Shown: positions 5,786-58,269 of the stretch, one piece after another
Position numbering within the stretch: position 1 is the stretch's first letter
Layout of the letters: each line of letters opens with the position of its first letter
Notes under the pieces: model-generated
What the model was told of the DNA's origin: nothing
What the model saw: the letters and a program-made list of their open reading frames with translations, nothing else
Database searches by the model: none
Position numbers and translations under genes: made by a program
Assembly: GCA_029945195.1 (NCBI GenBank)
Contig: GCA_029945195.1_4117.1
Strand: one strand, 5' to 3'
DNA from: a phage
DNA length: 64,000 nucleotides

Positions 5786-5859
5786 CAGTACTGTAAAAAG
5801 GCGTATAATGTTTTACATAGAGGGGGGAAATGGTTCTCCCCAATAACAGGAGATACAAA

Positions 5860-6098: not shown

Positions 6099-6233
6099 AT
6101 GAATCCTAACGGTATAGTTTACAGTACTCCTAAAACTAAAGCAGATAAAGCTAAAGCACGTAAAGCGAAAGTACAGGAATACATCAAGCAAGGCATGACA
6201 CGAAAGGCCGCAGTACTTAAAGCTAAAAAATAA
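6099..6233 (+). CDS. small basic peptide (44 aa, not in track)
   Basis: hand-translated, lysine-rich; start abuts upstream stop. Confidence 0.4.
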   Translation: MNPNGIVYSTPKTKADKAKARKAKVQEYIKQGMTRKAAVLKAKK

Positions 6234-6237
6234 ATGA

Positions 6238-6314
6238 AAAAAGTGGTTGACTTCGGTCAGCCATTTTGCTATTATATATTCATTGAGAGATAGCTCACTA
6301 GCCCACAGGGTGCA
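6238..6314 (+). repeat. composite intergenic repeat, copy A
   Basis: hairpin 6238-6267 with embedded TTGACT 6247-6252 and TATTAT 6270-6275; conserved motif CTAGCCCACAGGGTGCA 6298-6314. Confidence 0.6.
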
Positions 6315-6368
6315 GGAGTGTATCTATTGTATAATGTTTGAGTACTGAAAACTATTTTTAAAAAGTAC

Positions 6369-6396
6369 TTGCAAACTATCTCAATAAGCGTATAAT
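6369..6396 (+). promoter_or_regulatory. sigma70-type promoter (TTGCAA-16-TATAAT)
   Basis: -35 6369-6374, -10 6391-6396; hairpin 6410-6428. Confidence 0.6.
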
Positions 6397-6447
6397 GTTT
6401 TACATCGAAAGGGGAAACGGTTTCCCCTGGTAATAAGGAAACAAATC

Positions 6448-6789
6448 ATGACTATCTCAATTGCTCAATCTAACTTTGAAAATGAAATCATCGCCCAGGC
6501 ACTGCGTTTAAATGATGGTCGGGCCGAAATTAATTACGGTTTCAATTCAGGCGGTTGCGAAAAATATCAGTACTTTACAACGGCTGATGGCTGTGTCCTG
6601 GGCATCAATACAGTTATTGTAAACATTCAGAAAATTAATTTCAATGATCCAGACGATAGCCAGTTTTACATTGTAGGCGTAGACGTGAATTATGAGGATG
6701 ATTCACTAACTGATGATCACACTGGCGAGAAGTTAGAAAGTGCATACGGTGAAGATGATTATCAGTCAGTACCGGAAGATTTTGAATAA
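6448..6789 (+). CDS. hypothetical acidic protein (113 aa)
   Basis: ORF track; SD AAGGA; promoter+hairpin cassette. Confidence 0.6.
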   Translation: MTISIAQSNFENEIIAQALRLNDGRAEINYGFNSGGCEKYQYFTTADGCVLGINTVIVNIQKINFNDPDDSQFYIVGVDVNYEDDSLTDDHTGEKLESAYGEDDYQSVPEDFE

Positions 6790-6882
6790 TATTAAAAAAT
6801 AGTTTGACAATAGATTATAGTACTGTATAATAGTTTACATCAAGGGGAGAATAGTTCTCCCCACTAACAGAGAGAAAACAAA

Positions 6883-7095
6883 ATGGCTAATATCTGCACT
6901 GCTCTGAAAAATGCAAAACAAGTTTTATTTTCTGATCACGATCATTTAAACAAGGATATTACTGGCGTTCGGAATATCAAAGATGTAAAAAGTGTTATGG
7001 GTATCTATTGCAATATGAAACGTGTTGGAACGTTCGGCGACAAAGTACTATACCAGGCAGGGGATTACAATTTTACACTGACGATCATTAACTAA
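6883..7095 (+). CDS. hypothetical protein (70 aa)
   Basis: ORF track; hairpin 6844-6862 upstream. Confidence 0.6.
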   Translation: MANICTALKNAKQVLFSDHDHLNKDITGVRNIKDVKSVMGIYCNMKRVGTFGDKVLYQAGDYNFTLTIIN

Positions 7096-7177
7096 AAATA
7101 TTATCACAGTACTATTGACATAGTTTGATAGTACTGACATAATAACTTTTATCAACTACACTACTAAGGAATTAAAA

Positions 7178-7357
7178 ATGGCTATCATCGCAAAAACTGA
7201 AATCATCGGCCTGGATTCTATCATCATGACGTTTGAAGATCAAAAAGGTATGTATGTAGTTTCATATGGTGATTATGTTCGGGAGTATGAAACGGTAGAC
7301 GAAGCCTTTGAAAGTTACATTCGCCAGGTGAATAAAGCATACGACGACTACCGCTAA
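7178..7357 (+). CDS. hypothetical small protein (59 aa, not in track)
   Basis: hand-translated MAIIAKTEIIG...; promoter ATTGACA..CATAAT and SD AAGGA upstream. Confidence 0.5.
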   Translation: MAIIAKTEIIGLDSIIMTFEDQKGMYVVSYGDYVREYETVDEAFESYIRQVNKAYDDYR

Positions 7358-7456
7358 AATATATTACCAGTACTATTAAAGATATTGACAACGTTTGATA
7401 GTACTGTATAATAAGTTTTATAAACAGTAGTTAACTTAACCTAAGAGAGAAACAAA

Positions 7457-7600
7457 ATGATCGCACTGGATTCATTCATCGACGCAGTACTGGCAAAAAC
7501 TGGCGAGGATCTTACCGCAGAACAATACGCGATGATCGAACAATGTCAACAGGACGGTAAATCGGTGAAAGATACTGTTAAGATTATCCGCAAGATGTAA
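7457..7600 (+). CDS. hypothetical small protein (47 aa, not in track)
   Basis: hand-translated; promoter TTGACA..TATAAT and SD AGAGAGA upstream. Confidence 0.45.
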   Translation: MIALDSFIDAVLAKTGEDLTAEQYAMIEQCQQDGKSVKDTVKIIRKM

Positions 7601-7606
7601 GATTAT

Positions 7607-7634
7607 AGCCCACTGGTTAACGCTGGTGGGCTTT
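7607..7634 (+). terminator. terminator-like hairpin containing Chi
   Basis: AGCCCAC/GTGGGCT stem 7607-7613/7626-7632 with Chi 7622-7629 spanning loop and 3' arm; weak T tract. Confidence 0.45.
7622..7629 (+). other. Chi site GCTGGTGG
   Basis: exact octamer. Confidence 0.6.
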
Positions 7635-7699
7635 AATTCATTACCCTATACAATGCCAGTACTAAACCGTTTATCTCGTTAGAATGCGTTACAGGACGT

Positions 7700-7903
7700 T
7701 TGACAATGATTAGCATGAAATCAGTACAAAAACAAATAGAAACATTATCAAAAATTAAACGTAAACAGTACTCCTTAGAATATACAATCAATGGTAACTA
7801 TCATCTAATGAAAGAAAATAATTTTATAGTCATTGATGAATCATTGCAAATCATTAGTATAGTACTGAAAGCATTAATCAATGACAGAAAAAAATTAAAA
7901 TAA
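7700..7903 (+). CDS. hypothetical protein (67 aa)
   Basis: ORF track; AT-rich, no strong SD. Confidence 0.35.
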   Translation: MTMISMKSVQKQIETLSKIKRKQYSLEYTINGNYHLMKENNFIVIDESLQIISIVLKALINDRKKLK

Positions 7904-7907
7904 TCTA

Positions 7908-7977
7908 TTGACAAATTATGCCAGTACTGGCATAATACTTACATCAAGACGAGAACGTCACTAACCCATAGGGTGCA
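7908..7977 (+). promoter_or_regulatory. promoter TTGACA-17-CATAAT plus conserved motif CTAACCCATAGGGTGCA
   Basis: -35 7908-7913, -10 7931-7936, motif 7961-7977. Confidence 0.5.
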
Positions 7978-8234
7978 CAAATGTAACTGTATAATATTGA
8001 TCAAAAAATGATCTGATCAATACTTGTTCAATTTGCGTAAAGTAGTATAATTCTATGCAGTTGGTTAGACGAAAGGTTATGATTAGTAGTGGAAGTGTAT
8101 AAAAATTTTCATGGTGTGGTGTTCCGCACATATGGGGATGAATATGTCGTGTCGTATGGATTGGAAAAAGTAAAAACAAGTAATATACTTGTCGCGTTAC
8201 AGTACTATAGTAATTTTATAATGAGGTTAAAATA

Positions 8235-8492
8235 ATGGCTGTAGGATTCACGAAAGATGGGGCCGAGCAAGACGAGATTAACGCAGTGATTCAGGCCGCT
8301 GTTAACCACGCTAGAACGCAAATTAACGCACAAATAGAATCACTGATACATTGCCTCGACTGCGGCGATAAAATCCCTGAGAATCGCCGCCAGGCAGTTA
8401 AGGGGTGTAAGTACTGCATAACTTGCCAGGAGGATCATGATAGTATTTTTAAACGTCAACCGCGTAATTGTTGGCATAGATCTATGAGATAA
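8235..8492 (+). CDS. TraR/DksA-family C4 zinc-finger protein (85 aa)
   Basis: CLDCGDKIPENRRQAVKGCKYCITCQ matches the CxxC-x17-CxxC TraR/DksA C-terminal zinc finger. Confidence 0.6.
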   Translation: MAVGFTKDGAEQDEINAVIQAAVNHARTQINAQIESLIHCLDCGDKIPENRRQAVKGCKYCITCQEDHDSIFKRQPRNCWHRSMR

Positions 8493-8573
8493 AAAGTATT
8501 GACAGTACTGAAAGATAGTGTATACTGTATTACATCAAGGGGAAACGTCTTCCCCTACTAAGAGGAAATGAAA

Positions 8574-8762
8574 ATGGAAAACTTATCAAGTATTTTAGTA
8601 CAAGATGATTTCGGTAATCCTGGAAGTGCTATCATCGTTCGGGGCAATAAGGCAACGTTTGTTATTGCTGGTGGGCCTGTACAGCGTAGCATTAAAAACA
8701 ATGCAGTTACAATCAATAATGTTCGCTATCGCTTAGATAAAGAATTGATTCATAAACTTTAA
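8574..8762 (+). CDS. hypothetical protein (62 aa)
   Basis: track ORF 8568-8762 trimmed to ATG 8574 (SD AGAGGA 8561-8566); hairpin 8538-8556. Confidence 0.5.
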   Translation: MENLSSILVQDDFGNPGSAIIVRGNKATFVIAGGPVQRSIKNNAVTINNVRYRLDKELIHKL

Positions 8763-8848
8763 AAAAAGTATTTGACAAAGCATCGTAGTACTGTATAATA
8801 GTTTACATGAAGGGGAGAAATGATTCTCCCCACTAAGAGGAAAGAAAC

Positions 8849-9061
8849 ATGCAAGGTCAACTAATCGTTCGTAAATGGTCTGATACTAACGAAAAACCGT
8901 GGGATGTTCAATATATCGGACCAGACGGTGTTTCACGTTATCAACCTGGCGTAACGCATAGTACTGAGCAATATGCCGCCGCTCACCGTGAACGCCTGTT
9001 AGAATCTATGAAACAGGGATTCTGTGAAAAATTCATTCAAGATCATTGGCTGAAAGATTAA
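8849..9061 (+). CDS. hypothetical protein (70 aa)
   Basis: ORF track; promoter + hairpin 8812-8831. Confidence 0.6.
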   Translation: MQGQLIVRKWSDTNEKPWDVQYIGPDGVSRYQPGVTHSTEQYAAAHRERLLESMKQGFCEKFIQDHWLKD

Positions 9062-9080
9062 TATATAAGGAGTACAGCTT

Positions 9081-9173
9081 ATGCAAATGAATCCGATGAT
9101 TGTTGTGTTAGCTGTACTTATGATCATTCATGCCATCGTAGAAGTACTAACACAATCAGGAGTAATACAATGA
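9081..9173 (+). CDS. small hydrophobic membrane peptide (30 aa, not in track)
   Basis: hand-translated MQMNPMIVVLAVLMIIHAIVEVLTQSGVIQ; SD AAGGAG upstream. Confidence 0.45.
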   Translation: MQMNPMIVVLAVLMIIHAIVEVLTQSGVIQ

Positions 9174-9340
9174 TCCAGGTGGAATTATCAGTACTGAAAG
9201 ATCTGTTTTATCGGTTAGGCACTACTGGCGAATACCCTAAAGGGGATACTGCTAAACTATACATTGCATTGGATGTATGGCAACGTAATGAACTGGCTAA
9301 CGCCTGGCGTAAAGGTAAATCAGAGGGGATTGCAGCATGA
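9170..9340 (+). CDS. hypothetical small protein (56 aa, not in track)
   Basis: hand-translated; ATGA overlap with neighbours. Confidence 0.45.
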   Translation: MIQVELSVLKDLFYRLGTTGEYPKGDTAKLYIALDVWQRNELANAWRKGKSEGIAA

Positions 9341-9486
9341 AAGAATTTTTATTCGAAGTAGTGTTCCAGGGCGTAGGAAGTAACCAACTGATACGATCAA
9401 GTGGTTACAATGTTAACCAGGCATGGAATAACATTAAACAAATGTACCCGAACGCTATCACCTATCGCAACCCAAAACAAGTTTAA
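9337..9486 (+). CDS. hypothetical small protein (49 aa, not in track)
   Basis: hand-translated; ATGA overlap. Confidence 0.45.
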   Translation: MKEFLFEVVFQGVGSNQLIRSSGYNVNQAWNNIKQMYPNAITYRNPKQV

Positions 9487-9497
9487 AAAGAATTGAA

Positions 9498-9567
9498 AAA
9501 GGGATTGACTCCGGTCAGTCCCTTTGCTATTATATATTCATTGAAACAATCTAGCCCACAGGGTGCA
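9498..9567 (+). repeat. composite intergenic repeat, copy B
   Basis: hairpin 9498-9525 with embedded TTGACT 9505-9510 and TATTAT 9528-9533; motif CTAGCCCACAGGGTGCA 9551-9567. Confidence 0.6.
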
Positions 9568-9585
9568 TAAATGTATCTATTGTTT

Positions 9586-9593
9586 GCTGGTGG
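9586..9593 (+). other. Chi site GCTGGTGG
   Basis: exact octamer, intergenic. Confidence 0.6.
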
Positions 9594-9633
9594 CTAGTAC
9601 TATCAAGTACTGAAAACTATTTTTAAAAAGTAC

Positions 9634-9661
9634 TTGCATTGTACTTAGAATCAAGTATAAT
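9634..9661 (+). promoter_or_regulatory. sigma70-type promoter (TTGCAT-16-TATAAT)
   Basis: -35 9634-9639, -10 9656-9661. Confidence 0.55.
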
Positions 9662-9668
9662 GTTTTAC

Positions 9669-9741
9669 ATCAGGACGGGGAACGAAATAAGTAACCCCGT
9701 TAAGTAGTCCAGGAGTAAGACATACGAAAACCTCCCCTGAT
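9669..9741 (+). ncRNA. conserved ~75-nt structured leader element, copy 2
   Basis: about 90% identical to 631-705 with the same flanking promoters. Confidence 0.4.
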
Positions 9742-9748
9742 AAAATAG

Positions 9749-9777
9749 TTTGACAATAGAAATTAAACGAGTATAAT
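9749..9777 (+). promoter_or_regulatory. sigma70-type promoter (TTGACA-17-TATAAT)
   Basis: -35 9749-9754, -10 9772-9777. Confidence 0.6.
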
Positions 9778-9807
9778 ACTTACATCAACCACAAAGAGGA
9801 ATACAAA

Positions 9808-10008
9808 ATGAAACATTTTACTTTCGGTGTAGTAGGCTTTACAGTATCCAGCGGCGTTTATAAATCAGAACGCGGTGCTAAAAATGCAGCAAGTCGGGCG
9901 TATGGTTCACAGCGTGACTTACAGGTCGGTTATATTAGTAACATTAATAACATGTTTATTCCTGTTTCACAGCGTAAAGCGGGTAACATGAAATGGGAAA
10001 CAATTTGA
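9808..10008 (+). CDS. hypothetical protein (66 aa)
   Basis: ORF track; SD AGAGGA. Confidence 0.6.
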   Translation: MKHFTFGVVGFTVSSGVYKSERGAKNAASRAYGSQRDLQVGYISNINNMFIPVSQRKAGNMKWETI

Positions 10009-10097
10009 TAAAATAGTTTGACAATAGTTTTTAGTACTGTATAATATTTTACATCAAGTGGGGAATAGTTCCCCACCTAACAAAGAGAGAAATTAAA

Positions 10098-10373
10098 ATG
10101 CGGATTCTACTGACAGCTAACGAAATCGAGCAAGTACTGACTACTAACCTGGAACAATGGAAACGTGATGCAGATATCCAGGCGGTACAATGGCTTAACG
10201 ATAAGTTAACGCCGGATGACTTAAGCAAGATTGTAGATCCTCAATTCTACGAAGATATTCACGACACCGCGTTAAGCGTCGAGGATGTACTTGATAAGCA
10301 CTATATTGATACTGATTTACAGGTTTACGGTCGTAAAAACTTTATCACTATTCACGACATTTACAATACTTAA
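10098..10373 (+). CDS. hypothetical acidic protein (91 aa)
   Basis: ORF track; hairpin 10059-10077. Confidence 0.6.
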   Translation: MRILLTANEIEQVLTTNLEQWKRDADIQAVQWLNDKLTPDDLSKIVDPQFYEDIHDTALSVEDVLDKHYIDTDLQVYGRKNFITIHDIYNT

Positions 10374-10460
10374 GTATTGACAAAGTATCTTAGTACTGTA
10401 TAATAGTTTACATCAAGGCAGGGGAATGGTTCCCCTCCTAACTAAAAGAGAGAAATTAAA

Positions 10461-10784
10461 ATGGCTATGATCCTTACCCAGAAAGTAGAAATGAAAATTG
10501 TAACTTCCTTTGACATTAAAGTTAATCGGTGGACTGATAGCCACGGCAATACTTACCACTCATGCTACGTGTCTGCATTGATTGGTGACCGCTGGGAAGA
10601 CCTGGGACACGAAACATTTACTTACGGTTACGGCACACAAGGCGAGTACACTGGTTTGGAAATCATTAAGGAAACTGTAATAGGTTTCAACCCGAAAGAG
10701 AAAGTACTACACAGAATTGAGAAAGAGATCAACAAAGAAATTACAGTTCGATACTACGATGTAAAACGTAAGAAAGACATGTAA
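10461..10784 (+). CDS. hypothetical protein (107 aa), paralog of 4692-5015
   Basis: shared RWTDSHGNTYHSC / FTYGY / KRKKD motifs; hairpin 10420-10436. Confidence 0.65.
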   Translation: MAMILTQKVEMKIVTSFDIKVNRWTDSHGNTYHSCYVSALIGDRWEDLGHETFTYGYGTQGEYTGLEIIKETVIGFNPKEKVLHRIEKEINKEITVRYYDVKRKKDM

Positions 10785-10883
10785 TAGAATCCATTTAAAG
10801 TACTATTTGACATTGCCCAGATAGTACTTTATAATAGACTCTAACTTGTAGTACTAATTAACTTAACTAATAGGATGTACACC

Positions 10884-11279
10884 ATGATTACTAAATTCTT
10901 CGCTACCCGTGAACAAGCTCGCATCGTTGCCCGTGAAGAAGGTGAAACATTTAAAGACATGGGCAAAGATGCACCGAAAGGACAACGCTGGGCGGTACAG
11001 TTCAAAGAGATCTCTGATATTGTGAATTCACCTGAGCCTGTACTTACAGCAGCAGAACTAAAGCAAGCTCAAGAACTGGCTGAAGTACTGAACGCTCAAG
11101 ATGACTTTTTGAAAGGTTCTGATATTGAAGTTACAGTTAACGCAAATGCATGGACTCACGCGGATCACCTGGCAAACCTTAAGCGTCCAAGTGAACTGAT
11201 TCGTAACCAGAAAGAGATCCGTCATGACCGTAAAGGAAACCGTGTAACAGTATACAGTAAACGCCGCCAGGTTATCTAA
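10884..11279 (+). CDS. hypothetical protein (131 aa)
   Basis: track ORF 10875-11279; second ATG 10884 better spaced from AGGA. Confidence 0.55.
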   Translation: MITKFFATREQARIVAREEGETFKDMGKDAPKGQRWAVQFKEISDIVNSPEPVLTAAELKQAQELAEVLNAQDDFLKGSDIEVTVNANAWTHADHLANLKRPSELIRNQKEIRHDRKGNRVTVYSKRRQVI

Positions 11280-11302
11280 TAACTTTGCAGTACTAACAAC
11301 AC

Positions 11303-11327
11303 GGCGGGAACTATTCCCGCCTTTTTT
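11303..11327 (+). terminator. rho-independent terminator
   Basis: GGCGGGAA-CTA-TTCCCGCC then TTTTTT. Confidence 0.7.
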
Positions 11328-11341
11328 ATAGGATAAACAAA

Positions 11342-11596
11342 ATGATTAAGGTTCAACTATCAAACGATAATGTATTACGGGTACACTATAAAGCCCCACA
11401 GAGAATCATCACAAAGGCCGTACAGCTTGCTAATGAGTTTATTAATGGTAGTCTATTGCCTAGGAAGTTAAGCAACGGGAAACTACGTGTAATCGACGTA
11501 GACACTAACAATAGAATAGTGATCGAGAGTACTGGAAAAATTAATCTATATGAACACCAACAATACAATAAAAAAATAAAACTAATATCACGTTGA
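11342..11596 (+). CDS. hypothetical protein (84 aa)
   Basis: ORF track; SD AGGA. Confidence 0.55.
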   Translation: MIKVQLSNDNVLRVHYKAPQRIITKAVQLANEFINGSLLPRKLSNGKLRVIDVDTNNRIVIESTGKINLYEHQQYNKKIKLISR

Positions 11597-11621
11597 CAGT
11601 ACTCAAATGTTTTAGTATTAT
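11593..11621 (+). promoter_or_regulatory. promoter TTGACA-17-TATTAT
   Basis: TTGACAGTACTCAAATGTTTTAGTA block duplicated at 11874-11902. Confidence 0.5.
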
Positions 11622-11654
11622 GTATCTATACCAACACAGAGAGAGAGAAACAAA

Positions 11655-11873
11655 ATGAAATTATCTAAAATCGAAAAGAAAACTATTGATGAAGCAGTGA
11701 AGCACGGTTATACCTTTCGTAATGATTCACACTTCACTAGTTTTCAACAGGGAAACCGTACCATCAAAAAACTCATTGATAAAGGTTTACTCACTAAGGT
11801 TGATAACGGGAACGGTGTAGAATATCAACCGACAGAAGACGCATTATCACTAAAGAAATATTCTATTATCTAA
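11655..11873 (+). CDS. hypothetical protein (72 aa)
   Basis: ORF track. Confidence 0.55.
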   Translation: MKLSKIEKKTIDEAVKHGYTFRNDSHFTSFQQGNRTIKKLIDKGLLTKVDNGNGVEYQPTEDALSLKKYSII

Positions 11874-11902
11874 TTGACAGTACTCAAATGTTTTAGTACT
11901 AT
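11874..11902 (+). promoter_or_regulatory. promoter TTGACA-17-TACTAT (duplicate of 11593-11621)
   Basis: near-identical 30-nt block. Confidence 0.5.
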
Positions 11903-11930
11903 GTACGCATACCAACACGGGGAAAACAAA

Positions 11931-12173
11931 ATGATTACTTTAGAAAAACGTATCAAAGAGACTACAACGCTGGTGGAACTGTTAACCGTTCTTAAATGCC
12001 GGGTAACTCCATTCAGTACACCGGACTTTATCAACATGGTGGACGTTAACGGTCGATATCGTATTGCGGTCGAACAAGGTACGGCAAAAGTATTCAGTAC
12101 TAAAAATACGCGTGAAGTATTCCACGCAGTTCAAGTAAAAAAAGTAGTTGCCATTGATAGTAAAGTACTGTAA
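11931..12173 (+). CDS. hypothetical protein (80 aa)
   Basis: track ORF 11874-12173 trimmed to ATG 11931 (SD GGGGAAAA). Confidence 0.5.
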   Translation: MITLEKRIKETTTLVELLTVLKCRVTPFSTPDFINMVDVNGRYRIAVEQGTAKVFSTKNTREVFHAVQVKKVVAIDSKVL

Positions 12174-12204
12174 TATAGTTTCATTAACTCAAGGAGTCAA
12201 CACA

Positions 12205-12789
12205 ATGCGTAACTATACTAAATTCATCCGTTCACTTCATGCAATGGAAACCAACAAAGAGATCCTTTCAGCTTGTCGGTTAGCTGGACTGGAGATCGTC
12301 GGTGCGGGTTCTTCCCGTATTGTATTCGCTTTAAATGATCGGTTAGTGATTAAGGTCGCGAATTGTGATGCGGGTGTAGAACAAAATGAAACTGAATGTA
12401 AGGTATGGAATTTTTTAGATTATGACCGTCCGCACCTTAAACAGTACTTTGCTAAAGTGCATATGCATTTATGCGATCCTGATAATCTGTTTATTGTTAT
12501 GGATCGTTTGAGTACTGCAAGCAAAGGCAGTGTAAAGCATGTAAACGCGTGCAATGAGTTAAAGTACAATATTAAACGTAATACGGTAGAACGCCATCAC
12601 CATTTCGCTGATGCTCTCAATCACGTTGATGATACATTATCCACACTAACGATAAGAGATATCAGAAAACAGAATATCGGCCAGGATCGCAACGGCTTGA
12701 TTAAAGTACTTGATTACGGTTTAACCCGCAATATCTGGAATCAGTACTATAAAAAACGTGATGTTAACGCGATAACTATAACACGATAA
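12205..12789 (+). CDS. minimal eukaryotic-like protein kinase fold (194 aa)
   Basis: track ORF trimmed to ATG 12205 (SD AAGGAG); Gly loop VGAGSSRIVF, LVIKV lysine, hinge FIVMDRL, catalytic loop IRDIRKQNIG, DYG; C-lobe subdomains VIII-XI absent. Confidence 0.55.
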   Translation: MRNYTKFIRSLHAMETNKEILSACRLAGLEIVGAGSSRIVFALNDRLVIKVANCDAGVEQNETECKVWNFLDYDRPHLKQYFAKVHMHLCDPDNLFIVMDRLSTASKGSVKHVNACNELKYNIKRNTVERHHHFADALNHVDDTLSTLTIRDIRKQNIGQDRNGLIKVLDYGLTRNIWNQYYKKRDVNAITITR

Positions 12790-12800
12790 AAAAGATTAAA

Positions 12801-12875
12801 AAAGGGATTGACTCCAGTCAGTCCCTTTGCTATTATATATTCATTGAGAGATAACTCACTGACCCATAGGGTGCG
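12801..12875 (+). repeat. composite intergenic repeat, copy C
   Basis: hairpin 12801-12828 with embedded TTGACT 12808-12813 and TATTAT 12831-12836; motif CTGACCCATAGGGTGCG 12859-12875. Confidence 0.6.
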
Positions 12876-12930
12876 GAAGTGTATCTATTATATAAGTATT
12901 CAGTACTGAAAACTATTTTATAAAAAGTAC

Positions 12931-12958
12931 TTGCAAACTATCTCAATGAGCGTATAAT
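12931..12958 (+). promoter_or_regulatory. sigma70-type promoter (TTGCAA-16-TATAAT)
   Basis: -35 12931-12936, -10 12953-12958. Confidence 0.6.
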
Positions 12959-13013
12959 GTTTTATATCGAGAGGGGGAAATGGTTCTCCCTGGTACTAAA
13001 AGGAATCAAGACG

Positions 13014-13235
13014 ATGACTACTATGACATGCGTTCACGCTTCAAATCTTCTGAATGATGCAGCATTTAAAGCAGGTGAAGAATATCAATGCTATCGGGAT
13101 GAAAATAAAAAAGTTTTCGTCGTTGATGCTAACGGTTTCCATATTGAATTACAATCCGGCTTCACTGGTTTAAATGGTAAATCAGTATGGGGCGTTAATG
13201 ATGATAATGGTCTTTATCACTTTATCCGTAATTAA
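13014..13235 (+). CDS. hypothetical protein (73 aa)
   Basis: track ORF 12957-13235 trimmed to ATG 13014 (SD AAAGGA). Confidence 0.55.
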   Translation: MTTMTCVHASNLLNDAAFKAGEEYQCYRDENKKVFVVDANGFHIELQSGFTGLNGKSVWGVNDDNGLYHFIRN

Positions 13236-13318
13236 GTATTGACAAAGTATATCAGTACTGTATAATAGTTTACATCAAGGGGAGAATAGTTCTCCCCACA
13301 ATAAAAGGAAACAAAATT

Positions 13319-13591
13319 ATGTCCAGCTACTCCGCTACTATGATTATTAAAGATATGAACGGTAATCCTACTTCTGCTGGTGGATCATTTGGTAACATTA
13401 ATTTAGATGGGCGGTTATCAATTGAATCAGCCATCAATGCCGCGAAAGAAGTTTTTAAGAATGAATGTACTGTAAGCAAACTGGATTATATGGGCTTCGC
13501 TATCGAGAAAACTAATCGTTTTGTGGACTACAAAAAACCACTGATGATCGATACTAACCTGAAAGCTAACGAAGTGGAATACTTATTATGA
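13319..13591 (+). CDS. hypothetical protein (90 aa)
   Basis: ORF track; hairpin 13279-13297; contains in-frame Chi 13376-13383. Confidence 0.6.
   Translation: MSSYSATMIIKDMNGNPTSAGGSFGNINLDGRLSIESAINAAKEVFKNECTVSKLDYMGFAIEKTNRFVDYKKPLMIDTNLKANEVEYLL
13376..13383 (+). other. Chi site GCTGGTGG (inside CDS)
   Basis: exact octamer. Confidence 0.55.
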
Positions 13592-13779
13592 CAGTTGAAG
13601 AAGTTAAAAAAGTACTGGCAGTACTACGCTATCATAATCATTGCAAGGTGAAGAATGATCCTGATTATGTTGATTCATCCCTGGAGGAAGACACCTTAAA
13701 CGCGATAAGCTATATGCAAACATTAGCAAAGCGTATGACCGAAAAGAATAGGCCGGACTATATCGGAAATAAAATTTAA
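13588..13779 (+). CDS. hypothetical protein (63 aa)
   Basis: ORF track; ATGA overlap with upstream gene. Confidence 0.5.
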   Translation: MTVEEVKKVLAVLRYHNHCKVKNDPDYVDSSLEEDTLNAISYMQTLAKRMTEKNRPDYIGNKI

Positions 13780-13867
13780 AAAGTACTTGCATTGTAGTTA
13801 GATTAACGTATAATGTTTTATATCGAGAGGGGGGAAATGGTTTCCCCTCAAGTCCAGGAGATACACC

Positions 13868-14131
13868 ATGAACACTATCGAAATCACTATCAATGCACAC
13901 GTATACGACAACGTAGTACTGCAAACTACTATGACCGCTAATGATACCAGTACTTTGCGGAATATCGTTATTAGTTCAGTATGTGCCGCTATCGGTGATG
14001 TTGCCCTGGAAAATGCAAAACACGTCAACGATGCCTTTACGATGTGCAAACGTGATAACTCAAAACATATCATCTGCGAAGGTTACGGCGGTGTAGAATA
14101 CAATGTTTATATGAAAAAAGTACTTGCATAA
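13868..14131 (+). CDS. hypothetical protein (87 aa)
   Basis: ORF track; SD AGGAG; hairpin about 13825-13847. Confidence 0.6.
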   Translation: MNTIEITINAHVYDNVVLQTTMTANDTSTLRNIVISSVCAAIGDVALENAKHVNDAFTMCKRDNSKHIICEGYGGVEYNVYMKKVLA

Positions 14132-14199
14132 TAACTAAAACAAAGTATAATGTTTTGCATAGGGGGAGATATCCTCCCCCACTAATAAGGAGTACTAAA

Positions 14200-14424
14200 A
14201 TGGCTAACTTTGATGAACTGATGCGGGAAGTAGCTACCCTGGCAGAAGAGAAGAAATCATTTGATTCTATCTATAACACCGCTTACAGTGATTCAGTACT
14301 GGCATGTACTCAGGATCAAAAAGATGAACTGATCGCCACCTATCATGAAGCATGGAAGTATTACCGCCAATGGGAGAAAGAAGAAAGCGAGTCTACCATC
14401 AACGGCATCAATAATCTAATCTAA
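14200..14424 (+). CDS. hypothetical protein (74 aa)
   Basis: track ORF 14155-14424 trimmed to ATG 14200 (SD AAGGAG). Confidence 0.55.
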   Translation: MANFDELMREVATLAEEKKSFDSIYNTAYSDSVLACTQDQKDELIATYHEAWKYYRQWEKEESESTINGINNLI

Positions 14425-14499
14425 AGTTTTATTTCAGTACTATTGACATAGCTTGATAGTACTGATGTAATAACTTTACTAACTACAAGGGGAAACATA

Positions 14500-14757
14500 A
14501 TGGAACAGTTCACACAATATCGGGTAAATCCTCAAGCTATGGCCTACGTAGAAGACCATAAAACATTACCAGTACAGACACCAATCAAAGGCCGTATCTA
14601 TCGTGCTATGCAGTGGAATAACGCCTATAATGGCTATAAAGCGGTATCCGCTGCAATGTACTTAGGGGATGGCGAATGGTTTGATCCAAATAATCCTGGT
14701 GCACTCGATAGTACTGAACAAATGACATGGGCCGACTATATCGAAGATATCTCATAA
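14500..14757 (+). CDS. hypothetical protein (85 aa)
   Basis: ORF track. Confidence 0.55.
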   Translation: MEQFTQYRVNPQAMAYVEDHKTLPVQTPIKGRIYRAMQWNNAYNGYKAVSAAMYLGDGEWFDPNNPGALDSTEQMTWADYIEDIS

Positions 14758-14845
14758 AAACTATTTGACAGTACTACAAGATAATGTATAATGTTTTACA
14801 TAGAGCGGGGGAATAGTTCTCCCGCACCTTTAGGAGTAAAACATT

Positions 14846-15046
14846 ATGTCAATCGCTAACGAATTGGTTGCAGTACTGAATGAAGCAAAAGCCAACTGCA
14901 TCGATGTACAGATCAAAGAGCTTGGCAATGGCTTGATCGGCTGTACTTGTTCCGTGCAAACGGCTACCGATTATCGGGAAGTGGAATCACTCGAATCACT
15001 GGTACGGTATATTAAAATCCTGGTAGAAGATTGGAGAATCATCTAA
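14846..15046 (+). CDS. hypothetical protein (66 aa)
   Basis: ORF track; SD AGGAG. Confidence 0.55.
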   Translation: MSIANELVAVLNEAKANCIDVQIKELGNGLIGCTCSVQTATDYREVESLESLVRYIKILVEDWRII

Positions 15047-15061
15047 CAAAAAAGAATAAAA

Positions 15062-15132
15062 AAAAGGGATTGACTCCGGTCAGTCCCTTTGCTATTATAT
15101 ACGCATAGACAAAAATTAGCCCACAGGGTGCA
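15062..15132 (+). repeat. composite intergenic repeat, copy D
   Basis: hairpin with embedded TTGACT 15070-15075 and TATTAT 15093-15098; motif TAGCCCACAGGGTGCA 15117-15132. Confidence 0.6.
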
Positions 15133-15175
15133 GAGAAGTATCTATAAGATAGTTAATAACGGTGAGTAACTATCT

Positions 15176-15183
15176 GCTGGTGG
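15176..15183 (+). other. Chi site GCTGGTGG
   Basis: exact octamer, intergenic. Confidence 0.6.
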
Positions 15184-15303
15184 ATGTAATGCCAGTACTC
15201 AAAACTATTTCAAAAAAAGTATTGACAAAGTATATCAGTACTGCAATAATGTATCTCGTAGGGCGGCAATGGTGCGACGGCCCACAAAGTTAGGAGATTC
15301 AAA

Positions 15304-15630
15304 ATGAGTACTTCAATCGCTATCGTTAAAGCTTTCATCCGTACCAATTTCGACCGCATTACTGTTGATGGTAATGATCGGGAAGTAGAATACTCTTTCA
15401 TCGTTGCACAAACCGCAAACGGTGCACGCTATATCTTAAACGATAGTGAAGCTAACCACTACTTCTATAATAAGGGATTACATTATATCCCTAGCGAAGT
15501 AGTCTACACTAAGATGAATAAGCTAGTAGACAAGATTAACGCAAAGGGTACTATAGATTTACAGTACTGGACCGAAACCGATCCAGAATACGGATCACAT
15601 CGTTACCTGAATCCAGGAATTAAAATGTAA
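15304..15630 (+). CDS. hypothetical protein (108 aa)
   Basis: ORF track; SD AGGAG. Confidence 0.6.
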   Translation: MSTSIAIVKAFIRTNFDRITVDGNDREVEYSFIVAQTANGARYILNDSEANHYFYNKGLHYIPSEVVYTKMNKLVDKINAKGTIDLQYWTETDPEYGSHRYLNPGIKM

Positions 15631-15719
15631 AAAGTACTTGCATTGTACTTAGAATCAAGTATAATGTTTTACATAGAGAGGGGGAAATGGTTCTCCCTCC
15701 TAAATTAAGGAGTTTTATC

Positions 15720-16121
15720 ATGACCTTCTCAATCACTTCCTTCGCTGACGTTTTAGTACTGGCTCGGACTTTTGGTAAAGATGCACTGGAGTACGCTGTA
15801 AGTAATGGCACTCTCCAACCGGAACAATGCCGCATCATTGGAAACTGCAAACGTTGGGCGGTATCCAATACTATTGCACTAGAAAACTTCAACGATGGTA
15901 ACAATGAGTATTCAGTTGATGCAGTATTCGAAGCCGTTGATCTTGGCGGTATCTATAACACTAACCTAAATGATGTGCGTATCGTTCGCACGGGGTTCGG
16001 TGCTTATGATGTATCTATCCGTGAAGCTATGAACACCGGATACATTAGTAAGGACTTACTTGCTCACATCATGCAGCTATGGACGGAACGTAACGAAGCA
16101 CGCACTATCTTAGGGCTGTAA
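15720..16121 (+). CDS. hypothetical protein (133 aa)
   Basis: track ORF 15687-16121 trimmed to ATG 15720 (SD AAGGAG). Confidence 0.6.
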   Translation: MTFSITSFADVLVLARTFGKDALEYAVSNGTLQPEQCRIIGNCKRWAVSNTIALENFNDGNNEYSVDAVFEAVDLGGIYNTNLNDVRIVRTGFGAYDVSIREAMNTGYISKDLLAHIMQLWTERNEARTILGL

Positions 16122-22595: not shown

Positions 22596-22685
22596 GAGTT
22601 CTGATAGTACTGAGAGTACAAATGTTCTTGACAGTACTTTTCATTACTGATATAGTGCACCAACGTTAATCATAGGGTACAGATT

Positions 22686-31792: not shown

Positions 31793-31810
31793 AGACGTTT
31801 CATTTTGACA

Positions 31811-31840
31811 GGCCGCAGGGGGGGGTCAAAAAAATTTCCG
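31811..31840. repeat. G8/A7 homopolymer element
   Basis: GCCGCAGGGGGGGGTCAAAAAAATTTCCGCTG; related inverted copy at 55905-55938. Confidence 0.5.
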
Positions 31841-31990
31841 CTGAAAAACATGCTAAGGTATATGTTTAATATAAAGTTTTATATTGTGTTTTTCAGAGTA
31901 CAGTTCATGTTTCTTGAAACAAAAAATACCCCGCCGCCGAACGTTCTCCTTATATTGGAGTTTACCTTATTAATTATAGTAGAGATTAAG

Positions 31991-32368: not shown

Positions 32369-32529
32369 TGGAATTTGATTTTTTAATATCAGTACATTCT
32401 TTTAAGCACAGTTATCAGTACTTTTGTAATTTAAACAAAGGTGATTTGATTATGGATACAGATACAGAGGCTGTATACAGTTCTAATATTCTGTACAAAT
32501 TCAGTACTAATCTGAAGGAGATTTTATGA
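32368..32529 (+). pseudogene. truncated duplicate of the N-terminus of gene 32894-33250
   Basis: first ~85 nt ~85% identical to 32894-32981 (MEFDFLIS..HSYQYFCNLNKGDL), then diverges to early stop (53 aa). Confidence 0.5.
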
Positions 32530-32894
32530 AAAAAGAAATTAGAATTCAATTCGGTATGAGGAAAAGAGAGGTCATCTGTACACTGAATCATGCGGACGTG
32601 GAAATGGGTGGTGCATTACAAAAATTCTCCCATTTTGTTCTTGTACTATATGAAAATGGGTCTTTTAAAATCTTCACATATGATGATTCAAAAAATTACC
32701 GTAATGATTTTGTAAATCTTACAGTACTGTCAGAAGAGGAATTCTTTCAGGAAAGTACTGTTTGGAATTTACCAAGAGCACCAATTGAATACGTCCGTGC
32801 TACACAGGTAGAGATGATCAAAACAATGCAGAACTATCCAGAAGATTATATGACTAAGTTTCCTGAATCTTTTAATGTAGAGGTTGAGTACTGA
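32526..32894 (+). CDS. family-B array protein
   Basis: LSEEEFFQESTVWN. Confidence 0.6.
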   Translation: MKKEIRIQFGMRKREVICTLNHADVEMGGALQKFSHFVLVLYENGSFKIFTYDDSKNYRNDFVNLTVLSEEEFFQESTVWNLPRAPIEYVRATQVEMIKTMQNYPEDYMTKFPESFNVEVEY

Positions 32895-33250
32895 TGGAAT
32901 TTGATTTTTTAATATCTACACATACGTTCAAGCACAGTTATCAGTACTTTTGTAATTTAAACAAAGGTGATTTAATGCACAGTGCAAATGAGTATATTCA
33001 TTACACTCAGGGTAAATTTACATTCATTGATTACAGTTCATTACAGTATCCACACCAAGATATGCCGGACTATACATTAATGGATACCGCAGAACTATTC
33101 CAAGAATCATTAGTATTTGATAAAAAGTACTTGTGTACATTTGAAGAAGTTATTGCAATACAAAATGAAATGAAAGAGTATGCTGCTTTGAATAAACCCA
33201 ATGCAAGTATTAATCAAGAATACAAATTCAATTTAGGAATTCAAGAATGA
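32894..33250 (+). CDS. family-B array protein
   Basis: DTAELFQESLVFDKKYLCTFEEV. Confidence 0.6.
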   Translation: MEFDFLISTHTFKHSYQYFCNLNKGDLMHSANEYIHYTQGKFTFIDYSSLQYPHQDMPDYTLMDTAELFQESLVFDKKYLCTFEEVIAIQNEMKEYAALNKPNASINQEYKFNLGIQE

Positions 33251-37900: not shown

Positions 37901-38450
37901 TTTAGATATTGCGTTTGAACGTATGGTAATTTTAATGCAATGTGCAGAAATGCATGAAACAATCCGTCGCACCAAAGGGATTGAATATACAAGTAAACTA
38001 TTCTCATACGAAAGTCGTCGAGGGATGGATCATTTTTACTGCACTGATTGTTCAAAGTTTTCAGTACTGAAATATTATCATCCTACTGTTTCCAATAATA
38101 GTTTAATATCCACATATGACGGTGTTCTGTTTAGTGTAATGTATGACACATTACATCCATCAATTTCAATCTATAAAGATTGCGATAGTAGTTTATCGTA
38201 TATAATTGAAGATTACTTATCTCCTAATACTGAAGAGAATATTTTTCAGAACAGTGTGTTGCATGATGAATTAAGCATAAAATGCATCTATATGTTCAAT
38301 AAGTTAAAAGAGTACGCCGATAATAATTACTTAATTGATAAGTTAGCAGTATTGTCTGTTTCCGTTTTTAATACAAATGACATTGATATGAAATACTATA
38401 ATGAGATTTGTAAAGTACATCATATGTATAAGGAACTATTATGTCAATAA
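37890..38450 (+). CDS. family-B array protein
   Basis: NTEENIFQNSVLHDE. Confidence 0.55.
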   Translation: MYDDLDIAFERMVILMQCAEMHETIRRTKGIEYTSKLFSYESRRGMDHFYCTDCSKFSVLKYYHPTVSNNSLISTYDGVLFSVMYDTLHPSISIYKDCDSSLSYIIEDYLSPNTEENIFQNSVLHDELSIKCIYMFNKLKEYADNNYLIDKLAVLSVSVFNTNDIDMKYYNEICKVHHMYKELLCQ

Positions 38451-53681: not shown

Positions 53682-53752
53682 TGAAAATAATGTGAACATA
53701 TTAGATTCTTGTGATATAATGTTCACATCTTTTTTTGATAACGGAGATATAG

Positions 53753-54503: not shown

Positions 54504-54534
54504 GGACGGGATTTGTTATCTCGTCCTTTTTTTT
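54504..54534 (+). terminator. rho-independent terminator
   Basis: GGACG..CGTCC stem then TTTTTTTT. Confidence 0.65.
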
Positions 54535-54546: not shown

Positions 54547-55401
54547 ATGAAACTTTATCTAATCGTTGACTACAATAAGGATTATGCTGGTAACTTCACC
54601 GAAGATTCGGATGGATATTGCACATCGACTAATGTCAATGTACGTAGCAGTAGTGCTCATGAACATGAATCTTGTAAAAATCTAAAAGATTTTATCGCAT
54701 ACCGAGCATTTGAAAAGAACTTCTGCCGCAGTAGATATTCGAAGTTTGAGTACCCGTTAATTGATGTTCCTGATGATTTAATGTTCCAGTTAATGCTAAC
54801 TGGAGTTCAAGATTATGATTACATAGCATATAATCATATTACTAAGAAAATTTATATTGGTACATCATCACATGACACTTCTATGTATGCATCATGCCCA
54901 GATGATCGAATGAATGATAGAAAATCATACTATAGTGGATCAGTTGGTTTAAATGATTCATTAAATAAAAATATATTCTTTGAGTATGTTTATGATTACC
55001 ATCATGAGAAAAAAGAACGTGAAGATTACTGTATAGCAATTGATAGTACTAATGGGTATGAAGACGTGAAAGAAGCACTTATGCCGTACATTATTGAAAA
55101 GTACTACAAAGATTTTCAGTACTGTAGTAATTTTCTAATCAGAAATTCTATTATAATCGGTCGCCAATCTAGTGCATACTCTCAGTACTATAATGATTCA
55201 CCAGTAGCATCGGCAAATGAAATGTGTGATATTTTACAAATTCCACGTGAAGATATGGCATTCATTTTTACATCTTTTATTGAAGATGATGAATTGTACG
55301 TTAAAAATAAACACCGTTTAATGCCAAGTAAGATTGAAATTATTAGATGCGTAAGCGTTGATATACTGACAAATTTTACTGAAAAAACAGAATATAACTG
55401 A
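54547..55401 (+). CDS. hypothetical protein (284 aa)
   Basis: ORF track; SD GGAGA. Confidence 0.6.
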   Translation: MKLYLIVDYNKDYAGNFTEDSDGYCTSTNVNVRSSSAHEHESCKNLKDFIAYRAFEKNFCRSRYSKFEYPLIDVPDDLMFQLMLTGVQDYDYIAYNHITKKIYIGTSSHDTSMYASCPDDRMNDRKSYYSGSVGLNDSLNKNIFFEYVYDYHHEKKEREDYCIAIDSTNGYEDVKEALMPYIIEKYYKDFQYCSNFLIRNSIIIGRQSSAYSQYYNDSPVASANEMCDILQIPREDMAFIFTSFIEDDELYVKNKHRLMPSKIEIIRCVSVDILTNFTEKTEYN

Positions 55402-55430: not shown

Positions 55431-55465
55431 AGGTGACAACATAATATGTTGGTCACCTTTTTTAA
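55431..55465 (+). terminator. rho-independent terminator
   Basis: AGGTGACAACAT..ATGTTGGTCACCT then TTTTTT. Confidence 0.65.
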
Positions 55466-56004
55466 TCCTGAAAGGTTCCCATAAGGAAATGATTAAAAGC
55501 CTAATCCACTCGAAAATGTAGAGGGTAGATGAGTAGTCCTTTCAGTACGAACAGCAGATGAAACCCGTTAGATGATGGCATAGTTTGAACCACTCACGGC
55601 AATGCGGCTGTATAAAGAACTCCAATAGGATAAAGAGAGTTCCTCGATAGACATATAAGGATCGCACCTTACCAATTATCTAAGGGAGATTTCATAAGAA
55701 ATATGCGGTCGGAATTATACAATATAGTTGCGTCCAAATTTTGTGAAATCAAATACAAGTACTGGTCATATGGTATTTGTATTATGTGTCGGGATGTTTA
55801 AGACCGACGACCGTTGCTACAAGAACCGCGATAGAGAGAAACAGAGCAACCCGCTTTCGTCTCGTAAGAGAATTCGTGATATGAACTATGTGAAGGCCAC
55901 CAGCGTCAAATTTTTTTGTTCTTTCCCCTGCGGGGGGGATGAAATATGCTCAAGCAAACCCCGTCAATATTAATTAAAAGAAAATAGTACTTGTAGAATT
56001 AGAC
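55466..56004. other. ~540-bp noncoding island, visibly less AT-rich than flanks
   Basis: no convincing ORF (track ORF 55728-55973 has no SD and odd composition); holds CCACCAGC 55897-55904 and T7..G7 element. Confidence 0.4.
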
Positions 56005-56079
56005 ATGCGTAGCATGATAATTCTACTGATGTTGATGCAATCAACGTCACGTATATTCATTGATGTTTCCATAGGAATA

Positions 56080-56625
56080 ATGATGGCATTTATTAGAAAA
56101 GAAAAAACTGTTACTTATAAAACTTTGAATTTTGATGATTGCATTAATCAGTCACAAGACGAAGATATCTTTACTGGATATGTGGTTATTAAAGAAAAAG
56201 GATGCATTTCTTATATAAAGGAATTACAAAATGGAATTGAAGTGACTTCAGTTAAATTACTTCCTACTCAAAAACCAACAATATCAAAAGCCCAGTATGG
56301 TAATTATTTTGAAGAAAGATATAGTAATAATTCAATAAGTGTTAAGGCTCATATTATTAAAGGAGAACTAGAAGGAGAATATAGAAAATACAACCCACAA
56401 GGAAAATGTGTTTGGGTTAAATACTTCAATTCAGGATATGATGTAACATCTGAAATTATAGAATTCTTGGGTTTAAAATGTACCCCTGAGACTATTCATG
56501 ATTACAAGTTCAATACTGAAGAAGAGTTTAATCTGATGATGCGTTACGGTTCACATTTTAAATTTTTATATGAATATAACATTGACAGTAGTACTTTTGA
56601 TAAGATAGTACACAACTGTCTCTAA
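56080..56625 (+). CDS. hypothetical protein with MORN-like repeats (181 aa)
   Basis: track ORF 56005-56625 trimmed to ATG 56080; GEYRKYNPQGKCVWVKYFNSGYD resembles MORN/YwqK-type repeats (weak). Confidence 0.4.
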   Translation: MMAFIRKEKTVTYKTLNFDDCINQSQDEDIFTGYVVIKEKGCISYIKELQNGIEVTSVKLLPTQKPTISKAQYGNYFEERYSNNSISVKAHIIKGELEGEYRKYNPQGKCVWVKYFNSGYDVTSEIIEFLGLKCTPETIHDYKFNTEEEFNLMMRYGSHFKFLYEYNIDSSTFDKIVHNCL

Positions 56626-57989: not shown

Positions 57990-58269
57990 TGAAATAAATC
58001 TTACAGGATATTTTTTACAAGAATCAATGATTAAATTTAGTGAAAAATTTTCAGTACTGGATGGTATCGAAATGTGGCATGTCAAACCACTGTTCCACAC
58101 TTTCAGTAAAGAGCACAAAATGTTATTGACTGAAGCGAGTAAATCAAATAACATATGTGAAATCAAAATTGGTGTAAATGTCTATAAAGGGATGGTTATC
58201 TTTTTTGACAATAACAGCAACTACTTTTATATTGTTAAGGAGCATTACGTTGACAAATACAAATACTAA
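57982..58269 (+). CDS. hypothetical protein (95 aa)
   Basis: track ORF (TTG 57970) trimmed to first ATG 57982. Confidence 0.45.
   Translation: MCDEINLTGYFLQESMIKFSEKFSVLDGIEMWHVKPLFHTFSKEHKMLLTEASKSNNICEIKIGVNVYKGMVIFFDNNSNYFYIVKEHYVDKYKY

Follow-up and report, generated by a model that had tools for sequence, protein, structure and literature searches.

Two runs of at least seven G occur in a 64,000-nucleotide (nt) stretch of phage DNA (GenBank assembly GCA_029945195.1, contig GCA_029945195.1_4117.1; the whole stretch is referred to here as the window), a G8 run at site 1 and a G7 run at site 2, and they are probably unrelated, separate things. The site 2 run appears to be structural rather than a switch, forming one arm of a conserved hairpin within what is apparently an undescribed structured RNA gene of ~520 nt, a multi-copy family of jumbo phages, Enterobacteriaceae prophages and genomic islands. 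The site 1 run is a true mutational hot spot, as predicted, and most likely represents tolerated replication slippage at a place where exact length matters little. A preliminary description of this DNA had joined the two sites as inverted copies of one element and proposed both as slipped-strand phase-variation tracts just upstream of the genes at 31991 and 56080.

Megablast against GenBank phages places both tract regions at 94-99% identity to Escherichia phages 121Q, G17, phAPEC6, SHEFM2K, PBECO4 and others. The window thus comes from a jumbo coliphage of the genus Asteriusvirus (the 121Q/PBECO4/G17 group), Rak2-like jumbo myoviruses with genomes of ~350 kb. All genes here lie on the + strand and specify mostly small proteins without known function. 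Both G runs and the A7 and T7 elements beside them are present, displaced by a few bases from where they were first placed. Long G runs are indeed rare, these being the only ones of at least seven in the window, which holds no C run of at least six; yet ~0.5 G/C runs of at least seven are expected from base composition in 64 kb (Poisson p ~0.1), so that two such runs are only mildly unusual. Over a ~27-kb homologous stretch of seven other genomes, G/C runs of at least six are essentially confined to these same two places. Because IMG/VR scans with the exact tract flanks matched 121Q alone, the isolate comparison was taken from GenBank phage records, from which tract length was read for each isolate.

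The site 2 run lies in a gap of ~680 nt, free of open reading frames (ORFs), between the genes at 54547-55401 and 56083-56625. A sliding profile against divergent Asteriusvirus genomes gives 96-100% identity over 55500-55999, compared with 66-90% for the flanking genes, and blastn with 55460-56000 retrieves the block from 62 phage records. In other genera blastn finds it at ~70% identity over ~490 nt, at four to five places per genome and mostly unannotated. These carriers are Salmonella phages Munch and 7t3, Yersinia phage fHe-Yen9-04, Serratia phage BF, Cronobacter phage GAP32, Pectobacterium phage CBB, the Erwinia pEa_SNUABM phages, Xanthomonas phages XbC2 and XaC1, and Klebsiella phage fENko-Kae01. 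Orthologous copies are syntenic, with a gene-415 homologue and its terminator followed by the element and then a gene-416 homologue. Paralogous copies were recovered by two motif scans of IMG/VR; all 31 matches to the second pattern, GATAGACATATARG-N12-30-TAAGGGA, fall in ~350-kb jumbo-phage contigs with three to four copies each. The copy number per Rak2-like jumbo phage genome is three to five.

Full-length copies scoring 240-275 bits are also found in chromosomal contigs of Citrobacter amalonaticus, Enterobacter chinensis, Silvania hatchlandensis, a Buttiauxella metagenome-assembled genome and Enterobacteriaceae RIT714. In the two contigs annotated, those of Citrobacter and Enterobacter, the element comes immediately after a gene for a large serine recombinase, has a CI-type repressor nearby and adjoins host pilin and type II secretion system genes; these neighbours therefore place it at a prophage end. 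Two of 5426 complete E. coli genomes hold the element, unannotated, on an island inserted beside ffs; the same island also holds DUF4326, DUF488 and dual-OB genes. None of the genome records inspected carries an RNA annotation for the element, and ARAGORN finds no tRNA or tmRNA in the window or around ten element copies.

An alignment of 20 orthologues and paralogues was used to assess covariation. RNAalifold predicts 71 base pairs, 36 of which show compensatory changes on both sides. Paired cells amount to 97.6% of the total, compared with 84% for shuffled partners and 34-46% when partners are slid by 1-3 columns, and sliding leaves only 5-12 pairs with double changes. On four of five covariation measures none of 500 shuffles matches the observed value, and many G.U pairs are consistent with the + strand alone. 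An additional covarying, pseudoknot-like pairing, missed by the prediction, was recognized by eye between GAUCGCA (~55642-48) and UGCGGUC (~55685-91) in the window; its counterparts are GAUAAC/GUUAUC in 121Q_p2 and GAUACU/AGUAUC in CBB_c1.

No ORF is conserved among the copies, whose longest ATG-initiated frames span 28-72 amino acids (aa) in differing frames and on differing strands, and 238 of the 261 indels in the element have lengths not divisible by three. A frameshifted gene spanning site 2 (ORF 55728-55973, 81 aa, TTG start) was considered; this indel pattern and the absence of a conserved ORF rule it out. In the records of SHEFM2K, JP4, E9.1 and fHe-Yen9-04, three to four very short ORFs of 30-70 aa, on either strand, are called within the conserved block; the covariation and the indel pattern make it probable that they are false genes. 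The whole window gives no match to Rfam 15 at the gathering score, at E<=5 the site 2 gap and a copy from a prophage give spurious snoRNA and miRNA hits only (E>0.09), and literature searches for an RNA of this kind in Rak2-like phages or prophages found no description. The element is conserved beyond its neighbours with no conserved ORF, and its covariation exceeds the controls.

Closer examination of the family places the site 2 run within this fold. The hairpin consists of a C-rich arm, a loop of 3-4 nt and a G5-7 arm, followed by an invariant AUGAAA. In the 20 aligned copies this helix (helix 16, the C/G hairpin) is 99% paired, its changes being mostly C to U giving U.G. Across ~33 distinct copies the run varies from G5 to G7 and is usually G6. 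At site 2 itself it is G6 in 121Q, G17, SHEFM2K, phAPEC6, PBECO4, ECO103 and Turkey3; the window has G7, as does Ecwhy_1 independently. This difference falls within the range of nearby noncoding T runs in terminator tails and spacers (53730-53736, 54527-54534 and 55458-55463), whose lengths in the relatives depart from those in the window by 1-2 nt and which serve as a helpful yardstick of homopolymer drift in this genome. The extra Gs of the window's G7 are able to wobble-pair with U 55922-24. Selection would keep the run because it pairs with the C arm, and one extra G would be tolerated because wobble pairing with the U run immediately upstream is possible; the G6/G7 difference would then be ordinary slippage inside a helix. 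Nor is the tract placed to alter expression: it is part of an RNA helix, and the next promoter-like site lies ~47 nt further downstream.

A slipped-strand switch for gene 56083 thus finds no footing at site 2, where a conserved helix arm of G5-G7 persists across genera and varies by an ordinary 1-2 nt. Of the length polymorphism anticipated for both tracts, the isolates bear out that at site 1 (G4-G9 between invariant flanks), whereas site 2 offers only G6 and G7, as the T runs do. Both tracts are, as first described, in ORF-free DNA upstream of + strand genes, but site 2 belongs to a probable structured RNA gene and not to plain spacer.

Other features near the runs were tried and set aside. 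A small ORF from the AUG that follows the G run (GGGGGG-AUG-AAA) is conserved in neither frame nor length (4 to 17 codons), and the G run abuts its AUG. A second hairpin, GAUG/CAUC, just 3' of the run has some support, is mismatched in several copies and is not claimed. At neither tract did scans find a terminator-like site, and local folds there are no better than shuffles.

The surroundings of the element suggest how it may be expressed. A candidate extended -10 promoter stands upstream, followed by a terminator-like hairpin; the G17 record annotates a terminator at the counterpart of 55432-55463, and the arrangement of TGCTATAAT plus hairpin is kept in orthologues. Paralogues and prophage copies carry TATAAT directly upstream with the hairpin absent, and one 121Q paralogue is located between minus-strand ORFs. 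From these TATAAT boxes of its own, and from the paralogue amid minus-strand ORFs, we infer that the element is independently transcribed. Beyond its 3' end, the candidate promoter of gene 56083 resembles the phage early-promoter repeat family AAAGTACTTGCAA-N-GTATAAT, and its counterpart in Ecwhy_1 and Turkey3 reads TGTATAAT. Such an element could be an abundant, independently transcribed structured RNA serving host takeover or counter-defence.

Several points weigh against this two-part explanation. Helix 16 varies almost solely on one side, by C to U, which provides little true compensatory support. Some copies have a terminator-like hairpin inserted just 5' of the C/G hairpin, and in those copies the 3' module might fall outside the main transcript. 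Single-base differences, such as that between six and seven G at site 2, could be assembly errors. Finally, site 1 lies exactly between -35-like and -10-like elements on both strands, and lengths of 5-7 there would give spacers of 16-18 nt, so that the tract may have a regulatory role.

A bolder combination of claims can be entertained tentatively. Under it, the element would found a new class of large structured RNA, spread horizontally among lytic jumbo phages (three to five copies each), prophages beside a serine integrase and Enterobacteriaceae genomic islands. The RNA would be active, perhaps as a ribozyme, as a scaffold that sequesters proteins or as an anti-defence RNA, and its conserved CCUCC-like/G-run hairpin would be a functional module; site 1 would independently be the first promoter-spacer poly-G switch of a coliphage. 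We consider this combination possible and somewhat doubtful as a whole.

Among known RNAs, the nearest parallels to the site 2 element are GOLLD and ROOL, large structured RNAs without known function associated with phages and prophages (10.1101/2024.12.08.627333). Like them, it is several hundred nt long, ORF-free, rich in covarying helices and present in phages and prophages. Unlike them, it matches neither of their Rfam models, is not adjacent to tRNA genes, and occurs in Enterobacteriaceae phages at three to five copies per jumbo genome. The group I and II introns of T4-like phages are likewise large, highly structured RNAs in T4-related phage; the element, however, is not within a gene, with a terminator before it and a promoter after it, some copies lie between opposite-strand genes, and no Rfam intron model matches even at E<=5. 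As in intrinsic terminators, a short G+C-rich hairpin stands beside a T run at site 2, but the T run precedes the hairpin on the + strand and an A run follows it on the minus strand, so that hairpin-then-U is found on neither. The related jumbo phage PA5oct has noncoding RNAs supported by RNA-seq (PMC7318152); the element shows no similarity to PA5oct ncRNA002.

At site 1, the 198-nt spacer 31793-31990 is present in Asteriusvirus only, and 21 genomes of this genus show every tract length from G4 to G9 together with two interrupted forms. The run is G4 in CMSTMSU; G5 in phAPEC6, slurp01 and ECO103/EC22.5-2 (two independent high-coverage assemblies of one phage, both G5); G6 in JP4, CRJP21, Ecwhy_1 and A4; G7 in 121Q; G8 in the window, G17, E9.1, SP27, PBECO4 and WPEC5; and G9 in SHEFM2K, SD-15_S21 and Turkey3. 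It is interrupted in BF17 (GGAGGGGG) and TH47 (GGAG8). The 50 nt on either side and the neighbouring A7 are almost invariant across genomes. Tract length is independent of relatedness: one species includes PBECO4 with G8, slurp01 with G5 and SP27 with G8, and Ecwhy_1 (G6) compares with Turkey3 (G9). As a control, only three of 34 assessable A/T runs of at least six in the same 27 kb vary, all noncoding and by 1-2 nt; the ~31 fixed A/T runs are mostly coding, and G5 runs do not vary.

This mutational behaviour is, on the evidence of the compared genomes, that of a contingency tract, whose length would change faster than its flanks accumulate substitutions. In phage A4 the tract is the exact point from which homology to the window extends, with a different upstream gene and another G5 run on its left side, which suggests that the tract marks a recombination junction. 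The tract region is absent from ph0011 and SD-1_S14, phages that are nonetheless viable. We infer that length variation at site 1 is neutral.

The alternative for site 1 that survives best, although we regard it as unlikely, is that it alone is a phase-variation switch, with the poly-G run setting the spacer of a sigma-70-type promoter. The inverted repeat that brackets the tract gives each strand a -35-like hexamer, TTGAC(A/C), and A/T-rich hexamers resembling a -10 lie on the far side of the tract. The + strand would read TTGACA-(11+n)-AAAAAT and the minus strand TTGACC-(n+8)-CAAAAT with an extended TG, and slippage would toggle gene 31991 or an antisense RNA within the phage population. Several features favour such a switch in addition to a hypervariable tract between conserved flanks: a perfect TTGACA lies 7 nt upstream; a promoter scan finds a minus-strand promoter-like site over the tract (TTGACC-16-CAAAAT with TG); G5-7 gives a 16-18-nt spacer on the + strand and a run of 8-10 the same on the minus strand, so that the lengths straddle the optimum; and the intergenic region is more conserved than the adjacent coding sequence.

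The promoter itself is where this proposal falters. The + strand site pairs its perfect TTGACA with a poor -10, AAAAAT, and three promoter-like matches were found where 2.1 are expected from shuffles. TTGACA is not conserved, having become TTCACA in Ecwhy_1, Turkey3, CMSTMSU, TH47 and WPEC5 and TTTACA in SP27. Moreover, the BF17 and TH47 tracts are interrupted, ph0011 and SD-1_S14 do without the region, site 1 is unlike the phage's own early-promoter motif, and gene 31991 is one of several paralogues without known function. Local folding at site 1 is no better than in shuffles. The phase variation originally proposed for site 1 is partly supported, in that the tract is hypervariable. A lesser possibility is that site 1 tunes a weak promoter whose spacer the tract occupies.

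A second variable spot lies downstream, where an A6-8 run adjoins a C-rich island with five variants among 17 genomes (CCCCGCCGCCG, CCCCGCCCCCGC, CCCCGCCCCGC, CCCCGCCACCG and CCCCGCCGCG). The island CCCCGCCGCCG (31929-39) is complementary to GGCCGCAGGGG of site 1, and this long-range pairing appears in the minimum-free-energy fold; with z = -0.65 and variants that break pairs uncompensated, it is not claimed.

Contingency loci built on simple repeats are familiar from Neisseria, Haemophilus and Campylobacter. In bacteria such loci place poly-G/C tracts in ORFs or in promoter spacers (PMC11868660). Site 1 is like them in that its G8-9 is of slip-prone length, polymorphic among isolates, set in conserved flanks and located between -35-like and -10-like hexamers. 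It is unlike them in its lytic jumbo coliphage setting, poor -10, unconserved -35 and a region that some relatives dispense with. Both G8 at 31818-25 and G7 at 55932-38 reach the length, about at least seven, at which slippage is expected; the behaviour of site 2 is not that of a contingency locus at all. PolyG tracts of Campylobacter phages reportedly lie within coding sequence and switch proteins on and off by frameshift. Hypermutable polyG tracts in the receptor-binding-protein genes of these phages are mentioned in a published account (PMC10877375). The tracts here are similarly phage-borne and differ in length between phage genomes, but unlike the coding tracts of Campylobacter phages both lie in ORF-free DNA.

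The two sites bear some resemblance to each other. When site 2 was aligned against all 100-nt tiles of the window on both strands, the minus strand of site 1 gave the top non-self match, a 33-column local alignment of CAGCG-(T)CAAATTTTTTTG...CCCCTGCGG with a score of 27, compared with 24, 23 and 22 at unrelated tiles. Searched with a hidden Markov model of the element family, site 1 is not recovered at E<=100; a profile restricted to the 3' module ranks it sixth, at E=3.8; and the pair is absent from the 25 longest inverted repeats in a repeat scan of the window. Read on the minus strand for the alignment, the G8 of site 1 becomes C8 and faces the C4 arm of site 2 and not its G7. The resemblance is thus barely above background and without statistical support, and one element in two inverted copies is not established.

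One reading of this resemblance, which we think improbable, derives site 1 from the 3' module: an inverted fragment left by an old copy or a recombination event would have decayed there, and the poly-G tract would be the former C arm of the hairpin, now expanded. The motifs do match in shared order (CAGCG, AAATTTTTTTG, C run, TGCGG, ATGAAA), the element occurs in several copies and moves between genomes, phage A4 has a recombination junction at the tract, and the site 1 intergenic region has two GC-rich islands, odd for AT-rich DNA. Yet the similarity ends within ~33 nt, the matching text is heavy in low-complexity runs, and the family profiles do not recover site 1.

Very improbable is the reading that makes the tracts two copies of a single inverted element, each serving as a slipped-strand switch for its downstream gene (31991 and 56083). 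It would account for the best non-self match in the window, for the common motif order CAGCG, AAATTTTTTTG, C run, TGCGG, ATGAAA, and for length differences among isolates at both tracts. The similarity is not significant, however (27 vs 24; family model E>100; module E=3.8), and the homopolymers are not equivalent, the G8 of site 1 standing opposite the C4 arm. Since every gene is on the + strand, an inverted copy could not act alike. The G5-G7 helix arm of site 2, moreover, is kept across genera and prophages despite different downstream genes; for site 2 this reading is largely refuted by the family alignment.

It is about equally hard to believe that 55457-55980 works as DNA, for example as an origin of replication or as a site of packaging or recombination, with the C/G repeat a protein-binding or cruciform site. 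Several copies in each genome and CGTCA(G/A) direct repeats on both sides of the hairpin would suit such a site, but the extensive compensatory covariation in many helices, the conserved orientation relative to the TATAAT box, and the G.U pairs, which on the opposite strand would be A.C mismatches or would mean nothing in a DNA duplex, argue for RNA. Finally, sequencing or assembly errors in homopolymers can hardly explain the length differences: single-base errors are frequent on some platforms, and near site 2 the window departs from its relatives at three noncoding homopolymers, all by 1-2 nt, but the site 1 range of 4-9 nt is well past the usual single base, two independent high-coverage assemblies of one phage concur, and ~31 non-varying homopolymers, mostly coding, show no difference.

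Table 1. Positions of the two G runs, the RNA-like element and adjacent features in the window.
Feature	Position	Strand	Sequence or composition	Basis or remark
Site 1 inverted repeat, 7 bp	31803-09 / 31825-31		TTTTGAC / GTCAAAA	Brackets the tract; context 31803..31843, A7 31828-34, TTTCCGCTG
Site 1 as read	31815-43	+	GCAG-G8-TC-A7-TTTCCGCTG	
Site 1 G8 run	31818-31825	+	G8	Sequence
Site 1, wider text	G8 at 31818-31825	+	TTTTGACAGGCCGCA-G8-TCAAAAAAATTTCCGCTG	
Second variable spot	31921..31939	+	A6-8 run and C-rich island CCCCGCCGCCG	100 nt downstream of site 1
Candidate extended -10 promoter	55419-27	+	TGaTATAAT	Motif scan; putative role
Terminator-like hairpin	55432-57, T6 55458-63	+	GGTGAC...GTCACC + T6	Resembles terminator of gene 54547-55401
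Structured-RNA-like element	55457..55980	+	~520 nt, ORF-free	nhmmer bounds 55457-55976
Element layout		+	Core, U-rich linker (T7 55911-17), 3' module (C/G hairpin, AUGAAA, ...CCCGUCAAUA)	Family alignment
Site 2 as read	55901-55938 (T7 55911-17, G7 55932-38)	+	CAGCGTCAAA-T7-GTTCTTT-CCCC-TGC-G7	
Site 2 hairpin	C4 55925-28, loop 55929-31, G7 55932-55938	+	C4, loop UGC, G7 as 3' arm	Family alignment
Site 2 G7 run	55932-55938	+	G7	Sequence
Site 2, wider text	G7 at 55932-55938	+	CCAGCGTCAAA-T7-GTTCTTT-CCCC-TGC-G7-ATGAAA	
Candidate promoter of gene 56083 (ATG 56083)	55986..56021	+	AGTACTTGTA...GATAAT	Putative; ~47 nt past the G7 run

As a claim about phase variation, the present results are modest, amounting to one hypermutable poly-G tract in a jumbo coliphage. 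The RNA element is a valuable but incidental result of following up the G runs. Large structured RNAs without known function are rare and have repeatedly been a source of new biochemistry. This one is found within the whole ~350-kb phage group in several copies and is common to prophages and an E. coli island. Its presence in the cultivable E. coli phages 121Q, PBECO4, phAPEC6 and G17 makes knock-outs, RNA-seq and structure work feasible. For annotation, the 600-700-nt 'empty' gaps of these genomes may be read as RNA genes, and small ORFs called there are probably spurious.

Further repeats were observed elsewhere in the window. Positions 1-16000 contain ~20 early-promoter cassettes (for example 1886-1957, 4298-4390 and 13765-13846) of the form AAAGTACTTGCAA-N-GTATAAT or TTGACA...AGTACTGTATAAT. 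Each continues ~15 nt on with a GGGGA-loop-TCCCC hairpin and then a ribosome-binding site, making a repeated module of promoter and stem-loop in the 5' untranslated region. An 85-nt repeat, AAAAAGGGATTGACTCCGGTCAGTCCCTTTGCTATTATATA..., is present in three copies (9496-9580, 12799-12883 and 15061-15145) and has the look of a terminator hairpin that overlaps a TTGACT/TATTAT promoter, with a conserved GCCCACAGGGTGCA motif after it; an inverted copy of GCCCACAGGGTGCA lies at 2244-2274. Downstream of site 1, a ~450-bp member of a tandem paralogue array (~32450-32900) is missing in PBECO4, SP27, JP4, UB, E9.1 and several Salmonella SD phages, and membership of the 32-40 kb paralogue arrays (repeat families D6, D7, D10 and D15) seems to change by gain and loss. 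The hexamer AGTACT, often as CAGTACTG, is strikingly frequent throughout the window, in promoters, intergenic repeats and genes (for example 559-589, 22615-22649, 38058-38087 and 58036-58066), and may serve this phage group for recognition or regulation.

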